This document shows positions 50 to 22,690 of a stretch of DNA of 32,000 nt, in pieces. A program made the translations under genes and the position numbers. The DNA comes from Bdellovibrionales bacterium (GTDB lineage: Bacteria; Bdellovibrionota; Bdellovibrionia; Bdellovibrionales; UBA1609), in NCBI GenBank assembly GCA_963692945.1, contig OY843585.1, positions 180,001-212,000 of the forward strand, written 5' to 3'. Every line of letters starts with the position of its first letter. Position 1 is the first letter of the stretch. The notes beneath the pieces were generated by a model. That model was not told the DNA's origin, did not search any database, and saw only the letters and a list, made by a program, of their open reading frames with translations.

Positions 50-125
<76 letters not shown>

Positions 126-158
126 TTTTTAAACGGAAAAATAAATATTTACTAAATT

Positions 159-192
159 AAAAAAAGGGGAAGCGAAAGCTTTCTATTTTTTT
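159..192 (+). terminator. candidate intrinsic terminator downstream of tRNA-Asn
   Basis: Hairpin GGAAGC-GAAA-GCTTTC (168-183) followed by TATTTTTTT (184-192) and preceded by an A-run. The mirror copy near tRNA-Ser differs only in the loop (GAAT), so the stem is conserved. Confidence 0.45.
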
Positions 193-226
193 AATTTATT
201 ACTGCTTTAAATAGGTAGAGGTTGTA

Positions 227-389
227 GGACTTGAAACGAAAGAACGACCTGTGTTGCTTGCGACTTTAGGAGCAAGGAATACTGGGAAGAAAAACAGGAT
301 GTTTTTCTTAGTGACTGAGGTGAGCCTACGCAATGAGTGAGCTGGATGCGAGGGAATGTAGTAGGCAAGTCCCTCCGCCTGAGCCATTT
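227..389 (+). repeat. tRNA-3'-end-tagged structured repeat, copy A (candidate ncRNA or miniature mobile element)
   Basis: 163 nt, near-identical to 409-571 and homologous to the reverse complement of 4745-4931. Hairpins at 254-279 and 287-309 (10-bp stem AAGAAAAACA/TGTTTTTCTT). T-arm-like stem GAGGGA/TCCCTC at 350-375. The last 24 nt (366-389) are identical to tRNA-Asn positions 105-128, including CCA plus TTT. Confidence 0.7.
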
Positions 390-408
390 ACAAAAAACAA
401 AACTTATT

Positions 409-571
409 GGACTTGAAACGAAGGAACGACCTGTGTTGCTTGCGACTTTAGGAGCAAGGAATACAGGGAAGAAAAACAGGATGTTTTTCTTAGTGACTGA
501 GGTGAGCCTACGCAATGAGTGAGCTGGATGCGAGGGAATGTAGTAGGCAAGCCCCTCCGCCTGAGCCATTT
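409..571 (+). repeat. tRNA-3'-end-tagged structured repeat, copy B (tandem with copy A, period 182 nt)
   Basis: Differs from copy A at about 3 positions. Ends with CAAGCCCCTCCGCCTGAGCCATTT (548-571), the tRNA-Asn 3' end with one mismatch at 552. Confidence 0.7.
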
Positions 572-572
572 A

Positions 573-950
573 CAAAACTCTAGTTCAGTTAAGGTAAATT
601 TCTACTCTTATTCTAACGAGCTTTTCATCGCAAGAGAGACGCTCTTCAAATCTCGTTAGAATAAAAGTTACTTAATAGGCTTATGTTTGAACTAGAGAAA
701 AACTGCTGTTTTTCGCATATTAATTTAGGAGGTTTTCATCGTAAGAGGGACACTCTTCAAATCTCGTTAAAATAAAAGATTTAAACATAGAGAAAAACTA
801 CGGTTTTTCGCATATGGGTAATCTCTTCAAGTTCAGAAAATAAGAAAGGTATTCCTAGAGAAAAACTGCTGTTTTTCGCATATTAGTAATCTCTTCAAAT
901 CTCATTAAAATAAGAGTTGCTTAATAGGTTTATGCTTGAACTAGAGTTTT
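573..950. repeat. mosaic MITE/REP-like repeat cluster
   Basis: Bounded by CAAAACTCTAGTTCA (573-587) and its inverted partner TGAACTAGAGTTTT (937-950), with an internal partner at 688-697. Contains a 13-bp-stem hairpin module (608-620 pairs with 652-664, plus an inner AAGAG/CTCTT-type hairpin). Three GAAAAAC-N4-GTTTTTC hairpins lie at 697-714, 792-809 and 860-877, each followed by CGCATAT and a CTCTTCAA(A/G)T module. Confidence 0.65.
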
Positions 951-962
951 TTATCATAGACT

Positions 963-2342
963 CTACTTTGATGAGAACTTAATGTTATTATCTCTCAAAA
1001 ACTTTTTTACATCGTTAATCGCTATAGCAAAATTTAAATTTTGTGTAGCAACAATATGATCTATAATCAAAACAGGAACACCTATAACCTCTTGAGTACT
1101 CTCTAAAAATAAAGCACCACCACTGTTTCCAGAAGACGTTGGACTTGTGTATTGGATATAATTACGATGCTCTTCTTTGCGGATTTGTGAGATATACCCT
1201 TTAGTCAATGTCCCACGAAGACCTTGAGGAGATCCTGAAACTACAACTTCTTGTAAAAGTTCCAAGTTATCAGAATTTCCTAGTTTCACAGGGATCCCTA
1301 CAGGTTTATCTATTTGTAAAACCGCTAAATCCTTTGTTGAATCTATAGCTAAAATTTCTTTAACTACAAATTCCCGTCCATCAAAAAGACGAACTATATA
1401 CTTTGTTTCATATTCATGGTCTTTAATCCTCTCTTTAGAAGGTTGAACAACATGGTAATTGGTTACAATCTTATCTTTATCAACAAAAAAACCACTCCCT
1501 AAACCACCTATTTGTTTCCTCATGTTGTTTTCTATCATTTCCATAATCTCTTCTAGCTCTCTATTAGTGTCATCATCATCTTCTTCTTCCTTCACACTTC
1601 CTATGTCTTCCATCACACTTCTTACGTCTTCAACCAACTTTTCTATTTCTTTTTTTCTCTCTTTTTCTCTCTCTTCATCCTTATAAGTTGCTTTTTCAAT
1701 AGACGTAATTGTCACAACAGAATTTAAAAAAACATGACTAGATATCTTTGCATCTTCAAGGTCTTCCATTTTTACATCTGGTAAATCAAGAACTTCTTCC
1801 ACATTGTATAAAGACACATTTGAAGCCACACCTGCACCTATACCTCCACAAATAACAGGAGCCTTCAAAATTCCAGGTAATAAAAACATTCCAACTGTCG
1901 TTAACCCATAAAGCAATACTTTAGGATCTTTAGTTACAATGTGTTTCCCTGTTTGATAAGATGTGAAACAAGCTACACCATTTAAAGCAAGAGATGTCCA
2001 CCAAGCTACAATGGGTACCGAAGTCCAGTATCCAGCAACTTGCTCAGGCTTAAAAACTTGAGCTGTTTTTTGAGACCAACCTAAAATAAAATTTTCTTGC
2101 TCTTCACTACAAATAGGAAGAGATAAAGAAGCACTTAAGGATTTTTCACTACTAAAAATCTTTTCAGCAGAAGAAATTTTCAAAAAGTTAGGTAAGAGAT
2201 GAGGTTTGTTATCTAAAGAAGTTACACAGGAAGGCATTCCATCAACAGAAAGCACAGCATAAGATTTCCCTCCATTCTCAAGTTTTTGTGGAGATAGGCG
2301 ATGGGGGGGGGGTAGGAGACATTGTTGACTTTGGTACTCCAT
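963..2342 (-). CDS. trypsin-like (S1/HtrA-type, no PDZ seen) serine protease with hydrophobic N-terminal region and acidic coiled-coil linker; body of a frameshifted or phase-variable gene
   Basis: C-terminal domain carries the catalytic triad context: GSGFFV..TNYHVV (His), KDLAVLQI (Asp), TSSGNSGGALF (Ser). Two hydrophobic segments (about aa 105-125 and 145-175) are followed by an E/D/K-rich linker. The ATG at 2342 has no Shine-Dalgarno; the likely true start is at 2400 in another frame (see the 2278-2400 and 2303-2312 features). Confidence 0.75.
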   Translation of the reverse strand: MEYQSQQCLLPPPHRLSPQKLENGGKSYAVLSVDGMPSCVTSLDNKPHLLPNFLKISSAEKIFSSEKSLSASLSLPICSEEQENFILGWSQKTAQVFKPEQVAGYWTSVPIVAWWTSLALNGVACFTSYQTGKHIVTKDPKVLLYGLTTVGMFLLPGILKAPVICGGIGAGVASNVSLYNVEEVLDLPDVKMEDLEDAKISSHVFLNSVVTITSIEKATYKDEEREKERKKEIEKLVEDVRSVMEDIGSVKEEEDDDDTNRELEEIMEMIENNMRKQIGGLGSGFFVDKDKIVTNYHVVQPSKERIKDHEYETKYIVRLFDGREFVVKEILAIDSTKDLAVLQIDKPVGIPVKLGNSDNLELLQEVVVSGSPQGLRGTLTKGYISQIRKEEHRNYIQYTSPTSSGNSGGALFLESTQEVIGVPVLIIDHIVATQNLNFAIAINDVKKFLRDNNIKFSSK

Positions 2343-2400
2343 AGGATATTGGTAAATACGAAAAAAATAAAAAACTACATACTAAAACAAATCTTTTCAT
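2278..2400 (-). CDS. signal-peptide-encoding 5' fragment (40 codons), out of frame with the protease body
   Basis: TAGGAGGGGTTTG-ATG gives a strong SD 6 nt upstream of the ATG at 2400. It encodes MKRFVLVCSFLFFSYLPISYGVPKSTMSPTPPPSPISTKT*, with a classic n/h/c signal peptide. The frame runs through the C10 tract and stops at TGA 2278-2280. Removing one C or adding two fuses it to the 963-2342 ORF. Confidence 0.6.
   Translation of the reverse strand: MKRFVLVCSFLFFSYLPISYGVPKSTMSPTPPPSPISTKT
2303..2312 (-). other. homopolymeric C10 tract (G10 on + strand) at the frameshift site
   Basis: Ten consecutive G on the + strand, counted directly, in an AT-rich sequence. It lies between the signal peptide frame and the protease frame. 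Confidence 0.9.
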
Positions 2401-2485
2401 CAAACCCCTCCTAATTAAAAATAGTTAGCGAAATATAATCCACTTATTTTAAAAAAACAAGGCATCAATGATAATTGTGAAAAAA

Positions 2486-3802
2486 TTACATCTTCTTATT
2501 TTTGGCTTTATAGCTTTCTGAAATTTGAAAATCAAGCCGGTTGATAAGCTGGTCAAGAGCATTTCCCTTATCAGGATGAGTAACCACTTCATCGGGATAA
2601 ACTATTTTTTCTTGAGAGAGACGATTTAATTTATTTAATGTCGCTTTGAGATTCTTTAAATTTTTTATAAAGACAGCCCGATTTGTTTTTAGAGCCACTG
2701 CTTTTAAATCTTTATATGCCAATCTATATTGAGGAGGTACCCTGTTATCCTCCATAAAAAGAACTTTAGCATCTAAAAAAATTCCTTCTAGCATATTGAT
2801 AGGCCCTAAAACAAGAGTTACATTGGCTAGAGAATGTAAAGCAGGTGTATAACCTATGATGTCGTTGATAAATAAAGTTTTTTCATTTTTCTGAATAAGT
2901 TTTATATCCTTCTTTGATAATTGACTTAAATAAAATATTTTATCAAACTGCTTTGAGAGTTTATCAATCATTTGATCTCTTACTTTAGAATTAAAATGAA
3001 ATGTAAGAAAGAAAGTATTAAATTTTTGATTCATAAAATCTGCAAAAATTTCAAAAAACTCTACTTGCTCAACTTCTATGGGGCTTGTTATCTGATTCCT
3101 TAGCGGTTTTGAAAATTGCACTTGATACTCGAAATTTTTTATATAAAGTGAAACAGATTTGCTTTCTTCTAAAAAAGGAAAAAGTTTTTTATAATTGGAA
3201 TTTATATTTTTTTGAGAACTATTTGCTTTTTTTAACAAAGCCATATCAATAATTTGTTTATGTGTCATCAGGTAATTATTTAAATCTTCTTCAGAGCGTA
3301 ACTTGTATTCTGCAGGAATTAAATACTGATTTTCTACAACATCTACAACTTTTAATTGAATATGAACATCTGAATCCTTATTCAGTCCCTGATTTAATTT
3401 TTCTATCTTAGTATAACGATTGCTATAATTTCTTTTAATGATCTTAGCTTTAGGAAAAATAAGATGTATGACTTGAGTTACAAAAAGCCTTTGAATATGT
3501 TCTCCTTTGTACGCAGCTTTGTTTCCTAAATAAGGAAAGTCAAAATAAAGATTTTCTCCCTCTTTAAAAAGTTTTTGGAGTGTTAAAACCTTAGGATGAG
3601 ATAGGATTTTATTTTTTGTATCTAAAGGCAATTCTCTTATATATCCTGTTGTAGGTAGATGAGGATATATCAAATCTTCTTTTGATTCCTGATACTCATC
3701 TATTTCAAAAATATTTTTACAATTACTTTCAGAAGCTAATAAAAAGTTGGGGATACTCAAAAAAAATAAGAGTGTAAAGAAAATTATTGTTTTCATATTC
3801 AT
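2486..3802 (-). CDS. secreted hypothetical protein (orphan, 438 aa)
   Basis: Long uninterrupted ORF. N-terminal signal peptide MNMKTIIFFTLLFFLSIPNFLLASE. K/N-rich with no motif I recognise. Confidence 0.7.
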   Translation of the reverse strand: MNMKTIIFFTLLFFLSIPNFLLASESNCKNIFEIDEYQESKEDLIYPHLPTTGYIRELPLDTKNKILSHPKVLTLQKLFKEGENLYFDFPYLGNKAAYKGEHIQRLFVTQVIHLIFPKAKIIKRNYSNRYTKIEKLNQGLNKDSDVHIQLKVVDVVENQYLIPAEYKLRSEEDLNNYLMTHKQIIDMALLKKANSSQKNINSNYKKLFPFLEESKSVSLYIKNFEYQVQFSKPLRNQITSPIEVEQVEFFEIFADFMNQKFNTFFLTFHFNSKVRDQMIDKLSKQFDKIFYLSQLSKKDIKLIQKNEKTLFINDIIGYTPALHSLANVTLVLGPINMLEGIFLDAKVLFMEDNRVPPQYRLAYKDLKAVALKTNRAVFIKNLKNLKATLNKLNRLSQEKIVYPDEVVTHPDKGNALDQLINRLDFQISESYKAKNKKM

Positions 3803-3876
3803 AGTGGTAAATAAAGAATCTCATTTTGTAAATAAAAAAATAAAACACTGGAAAAAAAGACACACTATTTGATTTA

Positions 3877-3988
3877 CAAAACTCTAGTTCAAATCCTTTA
3901 TTTTAACGAGATTTGAAGAGTGTCCCTCTTTACGATGAAAAGCTCGTTAAAATAAGAGTAGGAAATACTTTTTTGAACGAGAGTTTTG
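3877..3988. repeat. 112-bp MITE-like element of the same family as 573-950
   Basis: Terminal inverted repeats CAAAACTCTAGTTCAAA (3877-3893) and TTTGAACGAGAGTTTTG (3972-3988) match at 15/17. The internal 13-bp stem TTATTTTAACGAG (3898-3910) / CTCGTTAAAATAA (3943-3955) encloses GAAGAGTGTCCCTCTT. Confidence 0.65.
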
Positions 3989-3996
3989 TTTAGGAT

Positions 3997-4344
3997 TTAA
4001 ACATATTTAATGACTGCAACAGCAATACCCATAAATGTAGGGAGAAGCAAAGTAATAAGCCATGTAGAAACTTTTTGATAATACTTTATACTAACCACAC
4101 TTGCACTGAGTTCAGCATGATCGGTTTTAAGACTTTCTACTTTTGTATCTAATTTATCTACCCTTACATCTAAATCAACCACCTTTTCATCCAATCTATC
4201 TATTCTTGCAGATAATCCATCTATCTTTGTATCTATCTTTGAATCTAGATTTTCTACTTTTCCATCTAATGTTTGCATTTGTGTAGATAATTTTTTTATT
4301 TCAAAAAGAATTTCATTTTGTCCTAAAGCATTGGCGTTCATCAT
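3997..4344 (-). CDS. tail-anchored coiled-coil membrane protein (XhlA-like architecture, homology unverified)
   Basis: SD AGGGAGA upstream of ATGATG. Repeated LDxK(V/I)xxLD heptad/undecad pattern across aa 25-75. Single C-terminal TM segment WLITLLLPTFMGIAVAVIKYV. Confidence 0.7.
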   Translation of the reverse strand: MMNANALGQNEILFEIKKLSTQMQTLDGKVENLDSKIDTKIDGLSARIDRLDEKVVDLDVRVDKLDTKVESLKTDHAELSASVVSIKYYQKVSTWLITLLLPTFMGIAVAVIKYV

Positions 4345-4536
4345 TTTTTCTCCCTATTTTGAGTGTCACTATTGTTTTTATAAAAAATCATTTTTGAACA
4401 AGAATATCTTAACATAAATTGTAAAAAAACTCCATCCAAAAAACTTTTACTCATTACTAAAGCAAATATTATGGCTCTATATAACTTCTAAAAGCAGTTT
4501 TTTTACAACTTTTTTGTATTACTGACGAATATCGGA

Positions 4537-4744
4537 TAAAACTCTAGTGTGTGAATTTTTATTTTAATGAGATTTGAAGAGTGTCCCTTTTACGACGAAA
4601 ACCTCGTTAGAAAATGATGCGAAAAACCAACACTGCGAAAAACAGTAGTTTTTCTCTATGAAACTCTACTTATTTTCTGAACTTGAAGAGTGTCCCTCTT
4701 ACGATGAAAGCTCAAAAAGTAAAAAGGGAAGAACGAGAGTTTTA
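4537..4744. repeat. mosaic MITE/REP-like repeat cluster, inverted relative to 573-950
   Basis: AAAACTCTAGTG at 4537-4549 and GAACGAGAGTTTTA at 4731-4744. GAGATTTGAAGAGTGTCCC modules lie at about 4571-4590 and 4683-4700. GAAAAAC-AGTA-GTTTTTC hairpin at 4637-4654. The cluster directly abuts the tRNA-Ser 3'-end copy. Confidence 0.6.
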
Positions 4745-4931
4745 TAAATGGCGGAGAGGGAGGGATTTGCCTACTACATTCCCTCGCATCCTGCTCACTC
4801 ATTGCGTAGGCTCACCTCAATCACTAAGAAAAACTTCCTGTTTTTCTTCCCTGTATCACTTGCTCCTAAAGTCACAAGTGATTTACTCCTAAAGTCGCAA
4901 GCAACACAGGTCGTTCTTTCGTTTCAAATCC
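4745..4931 (-). repeat. tRNA-3'-end-tagged structured repeat, copy C
   Basis: The reverse complement is homologous to copies A and B, with a 24-nt internal duplication (CTCCTAAAGTC at 4863-4873 and 4886-4896). On its own strand it ends with the tRNA-Ser 3' end: 4745-4769 is identical to 5026-5050 (25 nt, including CCA). Stem ATCACTTG/CAAGTGAT (4855-4862 / 4875-4882) carries changes compensatory relative to copies A and B. Confidence 0.7.
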
Positions 4932-4963
4932 TCAACCTCTACCTATTTAAAGCAGTAATAAAT

Positions 4964-4998
4964 TAAAAAAATAGAAAGCATTCGCTTCCCCTTTTTTT
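4964..4998 (-). terminator. candidate intrinsic terminator downstream of tRNA-Ser
   Basis: Mirror of 159-192. Stem GAAAGC/GCTTCC at 4974-4979 / 4984-4989 with a T-run on the minus strand (A-run 4964-4970 on +). Confidence 0.45.
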
Positions 4999-5029
4999 AA
5001 TTTAGTAAATATTTATTTTTCCGTGTAAA

Positions 5030-5119
5030 TGGCGGAGAGGGAGGGATTTGAACCCCCGAGACCCGTAAAGGCCTGCCGGTTTTCAAGACCGGTGCAATCA
5101 ACCGCTCTGCCACCTCTCC
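5030..5119 (-). tRNA. tRNA-Ser (anticodon TGA)
   Basis: 90 nt class II tRNA. Acceptor GGAGAGG/CCTCTCC. Anticodon stem CCGGT/ACCGG with loop CTTGAAA (TGA). Long variable arm. T arm GGGGG-TTCAAAT-CCCTC. Discriminator G and encoded CCA. Confidence 0.9.
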
Positions 5120-5127
5120 ACATAATT

Positions 5128-5400
5128 TTACGAGCTATAAGCCCATAATATATAAAACCTCAATAAAAAAGCAAAAACTACAAGTAAAAAATCTATAAGG
5201 AAAAGAGTTATAAATCCATAACCTTTCATCACATACAAAAAAGCCATTGTTATAGAAATCAAAATAAAAACAAAAGAAAAACTTCCATATCTAATAAATT
5301 CCTGCCCAACAAGAGCTATCACATAAGCAATCGCTAAGCCAGATAAGATTTTCATCAACTTTAAAGATATCTTTTGAAAAGTTTTATATTTATCAGACAT
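5128..5400 (-). CDS. small integral membrane protein (3 predicted TM segments)
   Basis: 90-aa ORF, almost entirely hydrophobic helices. No SD seen. Ends 9 nt upstream of the tRNA-Ser 5' end. Confidence 0.5.
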   Translation of the reverse strand: MSDKYKTFQKISLKLMKILSGLAIAYVIALVGQEFIRYGSFSFVFILISITMAFLYVMKGYGFITLFLIDFLLVVFAFLLRFYILWAYSS

Positions 5401-13314: not shown

Positions 13315-14652
13315 TTAAATCTTAATATTTGGAGAAGTGTAATCAAATTCTCGCTGTTTCCGTCGCTTATTAAGGATCATTTTCACCATAAAGATAATAA
13401 AAACTAAAAAGCCAAAAATTCCTGCAAAAAACTCTTTATTTTGCATAATAAGACTTATGTAATCTTGCTTTTTTGGATATTCAATTTGAGGCATTGGAGG
13501 TGTTTCTGGCAAAGACAAGTCAGGCGAAAGGGCTTCTGGTGAATCAGAAGGCTCCGTAGATTCTGGCATGACTGGTTCTGGTTCTGGCATGACTGGTTCT
13601 GGTTCTGGTGCTCTTGCTTGTTTCACACTTTCAACAGGCCAATAAGAAATAATAACTTCTTTTGAGATAGTCCATTTAGATTTCAAATTAGGGTTTGTTG
13701 CCCAAATCTCTTTCCAACTGTTTGAATCCCCTAAAAGCTGAGAAGAAACCTCTCTTATATTTTGACCAGGAACCACTTTATACACAGAAGGAGTTATACC
13801 CATATCATCATAATAAAAAAGTATTCTAGATTGATCGTTTGGACGATTAGGAGAGTTGTAATAAATTTTATCTCCTACTTTTACAGAACGAGAACTCAAA
13901 TAAGGATTTATAGCGTAAAGAGCTCCTGTTTGATTTGTTCCATAAATTGTTTGACTGATACTTTGTAAATCTTCATTTGGACGAACAATATAAACCCCAT
14001 TCACTAAATGAATACCGACTTTATAAGGAATTGTTTTTACTTTCAAAAGAGGTCTATTTTTTGCAACTACGGGAGTTTTTATTTCGGGTGCAACAAAAGA
14101 TTCTGTTTCAGAGCTATCTTCTACAAAACTGGCTTCCTCTTGAAGAGTTCCATCAGAGGAATCTTCTTCACTACTTTCTTCAGCATAAGATTCTTCTGCA
14201 TCCTCTTCTTCATCCTCTTCAACATATTCTCCCTCTTCATCTATCTCTTCATAACCTTCTTCATCATCTATAATTTCTTCATCTAAATCACTTTCATCTC
14301 CTCCGAAAAGACGTTTAAAAAATCCTGAAATACCATCACTTTTAGTTTCTTCATCTTCCTCGTCATACTCTTCTTCATCTTCGTCTTCGTCATACTCTTC
14401 GTCTTCGTCTTCTTCTTCGCTATCTTCTTCGTCTTCTTCGCTGTCTTCATCTTCCTCGTCTTCATACTCTTCTTCGTCTTCTTCGTCATACTCTTCTTCG
14501 CCTTCATCGTCTTCTTCTTCGTACTCTTCTTTTGAATCATCAAAGTCTTCAGACATTTCTTCAGCAGTCTCCATAGAGCTTTTAAGCCCTAAATAAGAAC
14601 AGCTTGTAAAACCAAACACGAATAATAAAAGAAAAAGAATCAAATGTTTCAA
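13315..14652 (-). CDS. hyperacidic lipoprotein with two LysM-like segments, proline-rich repeat and C-terminal TM anchor
   Basis: TTG start with GGGAAG upstream. Lipobox-like LFVFGFTSC. About 150 aa are nearly pure D/E. LysM-like YIVRPNEDLQSISQTIYG and YKVVPGQNIREVSSQLLG. PEPEPVM x2, then the TM FFAGIFGFLVFIIFMVKMIL. Confidence 0.7.
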   Translation of the reverse strand: MKHLILFLLLFVFGFTSCSYLGLKSSMETAEEMSEDFDDSKEEYEEEDDEGEEEYDEEDEEEYEDEEDEDSEEDEEDSEEEDEDEEYDEDEDEEEYDEEDEETKSDGISGFFKRLFGGDESDLDEEIIDDEEGYEEIDEEGEYVEEDEEEDAEESYAEESSEEDSSDGTLQEEASFVEDSSETESFVAPEIKTPVVAKNRPLLKVKTIPYKVGIHLVNGVYIVRPNEDLQSISQTIYGTNQTGALYAINPYLSSRSVKVGDKIYYNSPNRPNDQSRILFYYDDMGITPSVYKVVPGQNIREVSSQLLGDSNSWKEIWATNPNLKSKWTISKEVIISYWPVESVKQARAPEPEPVMPEPEPVMPESTEPSDSPEALSPDLSLPETPPMPQIEYPKKQDYISLIMQNKEFFAGIFGFLVFIIFMVKMILNKRRKQREFDYTSPNIKI

Positions 14653-21574: not shown

Positions 21575-22690
21575 TTATTTACGAATTTTATAGTGGATAG
21601 AAATAGATGTGTTGGACTTTATTTTCCCTTTAAATATAACCTTTTTACCATCTATAGACCAAGGAATCTCTTGAGATTGACCAAAATCTACATGAACACT
21701 TTCTACAATAGGCAATTCATCTAAAACCAGACTATTTTCTAAATTTATTTTTATATGTTTTGAGATTTTTTCTAATTGAGTTCCATAATCTTCACTACAA
21801 ATATCAATATTGTCACCATTTGTAAGAGTAGAGAGTTCTCCAATAATTTTTCCTAACCGTGCCGTCTTATTTCGTCTTTGTCTTTCCTCTTCTTTGATTC
21901 GACAAGTTTCATCTTTCACTAAAATACTAAAGTTTATAAATTTTTTCTTAAGACCTTGAAAAACATCATTAAAAGTATCTACAACCTCTTGAGCCTTTGT
22001 AGCGCGTTTAGAATCTTCAAATCGTTCTTCGTCATTGGTTATAATAAGAGTTACTAAATCGGCTTTAGGACGAAAAAAAGAATTGTTATCTAACCGTTGT
22101 CTCTCAAGAGCCGATTTTAATGATCTTAAAGGTTGCTCTAATCCACCACTACAATAAGGAGGCCGTTCACAATTTAGTTCAGGAGAGTGGGACAAAGTGT
22201 GGTAGAAAGTATTTTCATAGTTCACCGTTTGTTTATTTAATATTTTTTCTTTCAAAACTTTTTGTCCGTTATCAAGTGGCATTAAAGCACCAAATTTAAA
22301 AGGTGAACCCAAGTGATCTTTCCATTGCTGTTGCAAACGACTCTCCATAGAAACATGATCGCCATGATCTACACTTGTGAAAGCAATTTGCCAATCATAG
22401 TCTTGTATAACAGATAAAAGATGAGAAAGAGATTTCCCTAATTTATCCAAATGGTGATACATAGATTTAGAAGAATCCACTAATAAAAGAATATCCACTA
22501 AAGGTTTTTGAGACCCTTTTAAAATAAAATCTTCTTTTTTCTCATAATAAGGAAGCTCTGGTGGTTTCTCCTTTTTTTCCACTACACTGGGTAAAGCAAC
22601 TTCTTCTTCAAAGGATAAATCTTGAAAATGAATTTGCGAACAAGAAAGAAAATAAAATGAACAAATGATTAGGGATAAGAAATTCTTCAT
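21575..22690 (-). CDS. VWA-domain lipoprotein
   Basis: Lipobox FYFLSCS. MIDAS-type motif VDILLLVDSSKSM (DxSxS) and a later ITNDEE. 371 aa. Confidence 0.7.
   Translation of the reverse strand: MKNFLSLIICSFYFLSCSQIHFQDLSFEEEVALPSVVEKKEKPPELPYYEKKEDFILKGSQKPLVDILLLVDSSKSMYHHLDKLGKSLSHLLSVIQDYDWQIAFTSVDHGDHVSMESRLQQQWKDHLGSPFKFGALMPLDNGQKVLKEKILNKQTVNYENTFYHTLSHSPELNCERPPYCSGGLEQPLRSLKSALERQRLDNNSFFRPKADLVTLIITNDEERFEDSKRATKAQEVVDTFNDVFQGLKKKFINFSILVKDETCRIKEEERQRRNKTARLGKIIGELSTLTNGDNIDICSEDYGTQLEKISKHIKINLENSLVLDELPIVESVHVDFGQSQEIPWSIDGKKVIFKGKIKSNTSISIHYKIRK

Follow-up and report, generated by a model that had tools for sequence, protein, structure and literature searches.

A predicted serine protease gene interrupted by a cytosine homopolymer lies on the minus strand of a 32-kb window of the Bdellovibrionales bacterium assembly GCA_963692945.1 (contig OY843585.1, positions 180,001–212,000). 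The window is the whole stretch of DNA that was analysed; related loci totalling 121.5 kb were compared with it, so that about 150 kb of the clade were covered together. The gene consists of a signal-peptide leader, a run of ten cytosines (C10), and a 459-codon HtrA-like protease body placed one base out of frame with the leader. Its architecture and ancestry fit a contingency switch, and a slipped-strand switch is a credible, unproven account of the locus. Feature coordinates are collected in Table 1.

The leader starts at ATG 2400-2398, and the AGGAGG in front of it is among the strongest Shine-Dalgarno sequences in the window: only groES and gatB have longer ones, and groEL and prmC have equal ones. 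Promoter-like sites in the region are no more numerous than in shuffled sequence. Leader translation begins MKRFVLVCSFLFFSYLPISYG, and all 40 codons, from ATG 2400-2398 to TGA 2280-2278, encode MKRFVLVCSFLFFSYLPISYGVPKSTMSPTPPPSPISTKT. Residues 1–21 (2338–2400) form a signal peptide with the n-region MKR, a hydrophobic core, and an S-Y-G cleavage motif; the hydropathy of residues 4–22 is 1.85. C10 on the coding strand is G10 on the plus strand (2303–2312). It covers leader codons 30–33, near the 5′ end of the open reading frame (ORF), and is the frameshift point between leader and protease body. The long ORF (963–2342, 459 amino acids [aa]) lies in the frame that results when one base is skipped, and its first ATG (2342) has no Shine-Dalgarno match. 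Tract lengths of 7–13 were simulated. C9 gives a 478-aa product with the junction MSPTPPHRLSPQKLENGG, and C12 gives 479 aa. C7, C10, and C13 give products of 39–41 aa, and C8 and C11 give 58–59 aa, so gain or loss of C units toggles the gene in silico between a full-length protein of 478/479 aa and products of 39–59 aa. At C10, as assembled, the gene is predicted to be OFF: the leader start would yield only a 40-residue fragment, and the 459-codon body appears to lack a usable start.

An in-frame GTG (2255, minus strand, protease frame) is found 23 nucleotides (nt) downstream of the leader TGA, with GGAGG (2267–2271) at a long 13-nt spacing. If ribosomes re-initiated at this codon, the OFF state would still yield a protease, one lacking the signal peptide.

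The window is 33% G+C, and the G10 is its sole G/C run of at least 6 nt. Extrapolating the observed run-length decay gives an expectation of 0.003 runs of at least 10 nt for 32 kb and of no more than ~0.16 for the 1.56-Mb genome. No G/C run of at least 7 nt is present in the 121.5 kb of related genomes. Of the Pro codons 8.4% are CCC, and of the Thr codons 9.7% are ACC, which puts the chance of ACC-CCC-CCC at ~7e-4. None of the 15 other Pro-Pro dipeptides in window ORFs is encoded by CCC-CCC, and none of the 44 Gly-Gly dipeptides by GGG-GGG. C10 is a real outlier, because the genome otherwise avoids G/C runs. An earlier sequence-only reading of this DNA had called such a run very unlikely by chance in an AT-rich genome, and these counts agree with it. 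The same reading had described a protease ORF opening at ATG 2342 with no ribosome-binding site, a properly preceded ATG 2400 with a signal peptide in a 40-codon frame that crosses C10 to TGA 2278–2280, and in-frame fusion of the two at C9 or C12. The coordinates, the missing Shine-Dalgarno match, and the leader were reproduced, and the fusions were recovered by simulation.

A search of a 5.8-billion-protein database with the repaired protein returned the window's own 459-aa product and six orthologues (P0002–P0007) with 37–54% identity. All six have an N-terminal hydrophobic signal region in one frame with the protease body. The closest, P0002 (455 aa, 54% identity), is encoded at the same position between tRNA-Ser and tRNA-Asn in locus L001; it begins MKWFILICSFLSFVSYGIPR and has the S-Y-G cleavage motif of the window leader. 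In a DNA alignment, the window leader and linker are 19 nt longer than those of L001, a difference of six codons and one base; conservation of the linker is poor, and the tract region is inserted there. Since the orthologues carry the signal peptide in frame and have no tract, the fused signal peptide–protease frame is ancestral, with exactly one extra base in the window; C9 or C12 restores the ancestral protein.

The L001 orthologue, which is intact, has an in-frame G6 (L001 6059–6064, CCA AGG GGG GAG) immediately after its signal-peptide cleavage site, the sole G/C run of at least 6 nt in that 13.4-kb locus. This G6 is in the same linker as the window C10, but is of another base and at another position. 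It may be a coincidence or a sign that the linker tolerates or attracts homopolymers.

The protease body is made up of an N-domain that is conserved and contains Cys, a pair of hydrophobic helices, an acidic linker, and the HtrA-like S1C protease domain. The weaker helix of the pair, at about residues 121–145 of the repaired protein, lies just upstream of the stronger one at residues 160–192. The catalytic residues H316, D357, and S426 are invariant in seven of seven sequences (window and six orthologues), and the motifs TNYHV, DLAVL, and GNSGG are family-wide. The best PDB matches are DegP, DegQ, HtrA, and DegS (E about 1e-14 to 1e-11), and NCBIfam HtrA-type models match far below their equivalog cut-offs (104 vs 416 bits). 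Pfam matched no PDZ domain in the protein, whose C-terminus lies ~37 residues beyond the protease domain. Nor did Pfam match the first ~280 residues; the conserved domain found there has two invariant cysteines. An AlphaFold2 model of P0002, built from a seven-sequence alignment, was poor (mean predicted local distance difference test score [pLDDT] 51.5, predicted template modelling score [pTM] 0.33); this low-confidence model shows helices at the hydrophobic region. The most economical reading of the product is a signal-peptide-exported, membrane-anchored HtrA-like (S1C) protease without PDZ, probably facing the periplasm or the outside. The signal peptide, hydrophobic anchor, and HtrA-like domain are those of a secreted or surface-type product. 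Signs of decay are absent: the 459 codons contain no stops, and the Shine-Dalgarno sequence, the signal peptide, the catalytic residues, and all other invariant family residues are kept. The gene therefore looks functional apart from its frame.

Genes for tRNA-Ser(tga) and tRNA-Asn(gtt), in convergent orientation, enclose the protease gene. Four genus-level relatives conserve the core genes beside this interval: murA and those for a TPR protein of 974 aa and a protein of 90 aa. The interval itself is a hypervariable hotspot in the genus. The protease is missing from the locus in three of five genus-level genomes (L052, L053, and L054), and tblastn detected no protease remnants in these three. 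Given the variation of the interval between relatives, and the repeat blocks that abut the tRNAs and bracket the cargo in the window, the protease is an accessory gene carried in a hotspot of integration or recombination rather than one of the core genes. For two further cargo ORFs, of 438 and 115 aa, neither family matches nor homologues in the related loci were found; the 115-aa ORF gave only weak, sub-threshold coiled-coil Pfam matches. Ankyrin genes occupy the same interval in L052 and L001, and the cargo beside the protease in the window consists of signal-peptide and membrane-anchored proteins.

The two inverted repeat blocks start at the 3′ ends of both tRNAs, and partial copies of tRNA 3′ ends are found at 366–394, 548–576, and 4745–4769. 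The core 34-mer of the blocks occurs at three places, all in the window, and in none of 54 related loci. In their layout the blocks are reminiscent of remnants of att-flanked miniature integrative elements (CIME-like) with the similar 3′ ends of the two tRNAs as targets, and they could support inversion of the 4.1-kb cargo segment. Short dispersed repeats of 25–70 nt, non-coding and in both orientations, are found around the three cargo genes (599–950, 3876–3964, and 4554–4709). Examples are TTGAAGAGTGTCCCTCTTACGATGAAA and TAGAGAAAAACTGCTGTTTTTCGCA; they look like repetitive extragenic palindromic (REP) sequences or miniature inverted-repeat transposable elements (MITEs).

Table 1. Features of the protease locus and extent of the tRNA-Ser/tRNA-Asn interval in the window and in related loci. 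Coordinates refer to the window unless another locus is named.
Feature	Coordinates	Strand	Remarks
tRNA-Asn(gtt)	50..125	+	interval boundary
Repeat block adjoining tRNA-Asn	128..586	.	tandem 182-nt duplication with partial tRNA 3′ end copies; inverted counterpart of 4731-5029
Protease body	963..2302	-	frame after deleting one C; no internal stops
Trypsin_2 / HtrA-like protease domain	1077..1499	-	Trypsin_2 E = 5.6e-25 (Pfam)
Catalytic Ser	1122-1124	-	S426, GNSGG
Catalytic Asp	1329-1331	-	D357, DLAVL
Catalytic His	1452-1454	-	H316, TNYHV
Strongly hydrophobic segment	1824..1922	-	probable membrane anchor; repaired residues 160-192, Kyte-Doolittle peak
Leader ORF as assembled	2278..2400	-	40 codons + TGA 2280-2278
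C10 homopolymer	2303..2312	-	in linker directly after signal peptide; encodes T-P-P-(P) in rare codons
Shine-Dalgarno AGGAGG	2407..2412	-	6 nt before ATG 2400-2398
Promoter-like TTATCA-17-TAAAAT	2446..2474	-	in 85-nt spacer upstream of leader; weak evidence
438-aa ORF	2486-3802	-	clear signal peptide; island-specific
115-aa coiled-coil ORF	3997-4344	-	C-terminal hydrophobic tail (tail-anchored); island-specific
Repeat block adjoining tRNA-Ser	4731..5029	.	91-98% complementary to 128-586; ends in partial tRNA-Ser 3′ end copy (4745-4769)
tRNA-Ser(tga)	5030..5119	-	interval boundary
Interval, window	50-5119		4.9 kb: repeats, 115-aa ORF, 438-aa ORF, frameshifted protease
Interval, L001	4655-7457		ankyrin gene and intact protease
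Interval, L052	13264-14421		about 1 kb, one ankyrin gene
Interval, L053	13193-13380		22 nt, empty
Interval, L054	13203-13509		141 nt, empty

The most likely explanation of the locus is a slipped-strand phase switch that is OFF at C10 as assembled, with a probability of about 0.42. Translation from AGGAGG/ATG 2400 with C10 would end in the 40-residue signal-peptide fragment, leaving the protease OFF. Slipped-strand mispairing, to which G/C homopolymers of 9–10 nt are generally prone, could remove one C or add two during replication, giving a 478- or 479-aa precursor (ON) collinear with the intact orthologues. We infer for this reading that the C10 state is biologically real, that tract length changes at a high rate at this locus, and that switching is useful to the organism. 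The tract is inside an ORF near its 5′ end and exceeds the poly-G/C cut-off of at least 7 nt used to call phase-variable genes; in Campylobacter jejuni NCTC 11168, all G/C tracts of at least 8 nt vary (PMC6321876).

Several results weigh against a switch. The poly-C tract is absent from P0002–P0007 and from the DNA of L001, L050, and L051, so the retention in related lineages that would be a sign of selection for mutability is not seen. No second copy of the organism was found in which tract length could be compared: an exact-protein look-up gave 0 hits, the repaired protein, apart from the six orthologues, found only the window's own product, GTDB species genomes held only distant relatives, and JGI metagenomes gave none by peptide patterns or by a DNA pattern of the tract flanks allowing 7–14 nt between them. 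There is no sign of a multi-locus phasome, with no second tract in the 32 kb or in the 121.5 kb of relatives. The same picture would be expected from a single recent frameshift in a gene that is dispensable, and runs of at least 10 nt, cytosines especially, still fail in long-read consensus (PMC9262707). The contingency-locus proposal of the sequence-only reading is partly supported: its anatomy (signal peptide, tract, and frames) is borne out and gains strength from the orthologues, in which the fused frame is intact and the tract is absent. The accumulated downstream stop codons by which that reading would have recognized a plain pseudogene do not occur in the 459 codons.

The first rival, which the sequence-only reading had named as its own alternative, is a one-base consensus error: the true tract would be C9, miscounted during assembly, and the gene an ordinary intact one for a 478-aa exported protease. 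This is somewhat unlikely, though it is the most serious of the alternatives. The DNA comes from an uncultured organism represented by one contig of 1.56 Mb (1,561,448 bp), presumably from a long-read metagenome assembly. Homopolymers of at least 10 nt are problematic in Oxford Nanopore Technologies (ONT) R10.4 consensus, and cytosine-specific read errors begin at 8–9 nt (PMC9262707). The error needed is one base at the most error-prone place of the window, and the rest of the protease gene looks functional. On the other side, 63 A/T runs of 7–9 nt inside long ORFs (14 of at least 8 nt, three of 9 nt) are all in frame and no other window gene is split, so consensus quality appears high with no general homopolymer problem. 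Full-length genes in the window include murA, prmC, prfA, rho, ppx, gatB, gatA, ligA, groES, groEL, uvrA, and PBP1A; the GroEL shares 90% identity with proteins from Bdellovibrionales metagenome-assembled genomes. High-accuracy consensus normally resolves 10-mers. Nor does the OFF state call for an error, being common for a truly hypermutable tract: 41–60% of nalP-positive serogroup B meningococcal (MenB) isolates are OFF (PMC3723659).

Less probable, but plausible, is a recent, effectively permanent pseudogene, an option that the sequence-only reading had touched on in passing: a C9 tract that had grown by chance would have slipped by +1 and inactivated a cargo gene that is dispensable and bound for deletion, with no adaptive switching. 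The gene is accessory, and the protease is absent without remnant from three genus-level relatives, which gives this option more weight; the small (1.56 Mb), AT-rich genome is consistent with reductive evolution, and the tract is unique to the lineage of the window. The additional disabling lesions expected of a decaying pseudogene are missing from the promoter, Shine-Dalgarno sequence, signal peptide, and 459 codons, which would place any inactivation in the very recent past. Under AT mutation pressure, a stretch of nine to ten cytosines in rare codons should soon be broken up, unless it arose recently or is being maintained. A C10 tract also reverts readily by its mechanism, which makes "permanent" unlikely while the tract persists.

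Recoding is a far weaker candidate. C10 would be real and fixed, and the full-length protein would be made by a +1 shift on CCC-CCC-CCC-C or by a polymerase dropping one C. The sequence CCC-CCC-CCC-C does offer a slippery P-site codon for +1 re-pairing: tRNA-Pro re-pairs perfectly in +1, and a PPP run slows the ribosome. Slippage by +1 is known for the motif CC[C/U]-[C/U], at a frequency of up to about 1% in Escherichia coli (PMC4519876). There are documented cases both of low-level compensatory shifting on G/C runs and of frameshifted endosymbiont genes rescued by transcriptional slippage (PMC5009743). However, the upstream sequence CAACAATGTCTCCTA has no Shine-Dalgarno-like element, and the 0-frame codons after the tract are CCA TCG with the stop 8 codons downstream, so no stop or rare codon occupies the A site. 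The frameshift is not conserved, all orthologues being in a single frame, and the bacterial transcriptional slippage documented so far concerns A/T runs (PMC5009743). The expected yield of about 1% or less would be leakiness, not a designed mechanism. The stricter version is even harder to credit: with C10 fixed and true, the exported protease would be made only by +1 recoding on the CCC-CCC-CCC-C polyproline run, at a level set by ribosome pausing at PPP (EF-P or tRNA-Pro m1G37 status) and not by DNA switching. Programmed frameshifting as a designed mechanism was rejected, since stimulators and conservation are both lacking. The 40-codon ORF was also considered as a secretion-monitor or arrest-peptide leader (signal peptide and PPPSP stall motif upstream of the weak GGAGG-13 nt-GTG 2255 start) and was rejected: every orthologue joins this signal peptide to the protease in one frame, and L001 does not conserve the GGAGG/GTG pair.

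Three other observations were made elsewhere in the window. An ORF at 13315–14652 (minus strand; 445 aa, no NCBIfam match) contains at 14347–14531 an imperfect tandem repeat array of 12/18/24-nt units, TTCTTCGTC, that encodes an acidic Glu/Asp-rich stretch. The units are multiples of three, which points to a length-variable low-complexity region and not a frameshift switch. A sub-threshold Rfam match to the small RNA (sRNA) sX4 (4980–5134, minus strand; 54 bits vs a gathering score of 70 bits, E = 2e-9) overlaps tRNA-Ser and most likely reflects tRNA-like sequence in the model, not an sRNA. A 371-aa ORF (21575–22690, minus strand) has a weak match (E = 1e-10, far below cut-off) to the NCBIfam "MIDAS family adhesin" named for Bdellovibrio, in agreement with the placement in Bdellovibrionales.

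If the C10 state and length heterogeneity are real, a small-genome uncultured lineage of Bdellovibrionales, apparently host-associated, would seem to use simple-repeat bet-hedging on an exported protease. Bet-hedging by simple repeats has been documented so far mainly in mucosal pathogens. The protease family and the island would then likely be host- or prey-interaction determinants. If C10 is a consensus error, the database protein of 459 aa without a signal peptide has the wrong start, and the gene in truth encodes the 478-aa exported protease. In both cases the class of mechanism is familiar, and current understanding would not change.

In its protease domain, the product matches the HtrA/DegP/DegQ/DegS family (MEROPS S1C), with TNxHV, DLAxL, and GNSGG motifs and an N-terminal export signal. 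HtrA/DegP proteins have one or two C-terminal PDZ domains, whereas the window protease has none and carries an N-terminal region of roughly 280 residues. In the small AT-rich genomes of Buchnera and Blochmannia, genes are also broken by one base in a homopolymer of ~10 nt while the ORF is otherwise intact (PMC5009743). Those tracts are poly(A) or poly(T) in core genes; the window tract is poly(C) in an accessory gene, and the A/T runs of the window are all in frame. The Campylobacter, Helicobacter, and Haemophilus phasomes are another parallel: in AT-rich small genomes, G/C runs of at least 7 nt are rare and located in the 5′ parts of genes (PMC6321876). These runs are non-random, are found in genes for surface or secreted products, and act by slipped-strand translational ON/OFF switching (PMC6321876). 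Such genomes have tens of tracts, compared with one in the 32-kb window and none in 121.5 kb of relatives.

The closest analogues are two secreted proteases of Neisseria meningitidis that are switched by poly-C tracts, NalP and MspA (AusI). They are not homologous to the window protease, and the likeness is one of mechanism only. NalP and MspA are subtilisin- or chymotrypsin-like passengers of autotransporters, whereas the window gene encodes an HtrA-like S1C domain on a membrane anchor with no beta-domain. The Neisseria tract is conserved and polymorphic over hundreds of isolates; the window tract has been seen once and is absent in orthologues. The likeness otherwise extends to several features. 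NalP and MspA are exported serine proteases with an intragenic poly-C tract of 6–15 nt and a mode of 9–10, a length similar to the C10 of the window (PMC3723659). They are accessory and sporadically deleted via flanking repeats (PMC3723659), and the window gene is likewise patchy and repeat-flanked. Their expression is ON or OFF by tract length modulo 3 (ON at 7/10/13 or 6/9/12; PMC3723659), as is predicted for the window gene.

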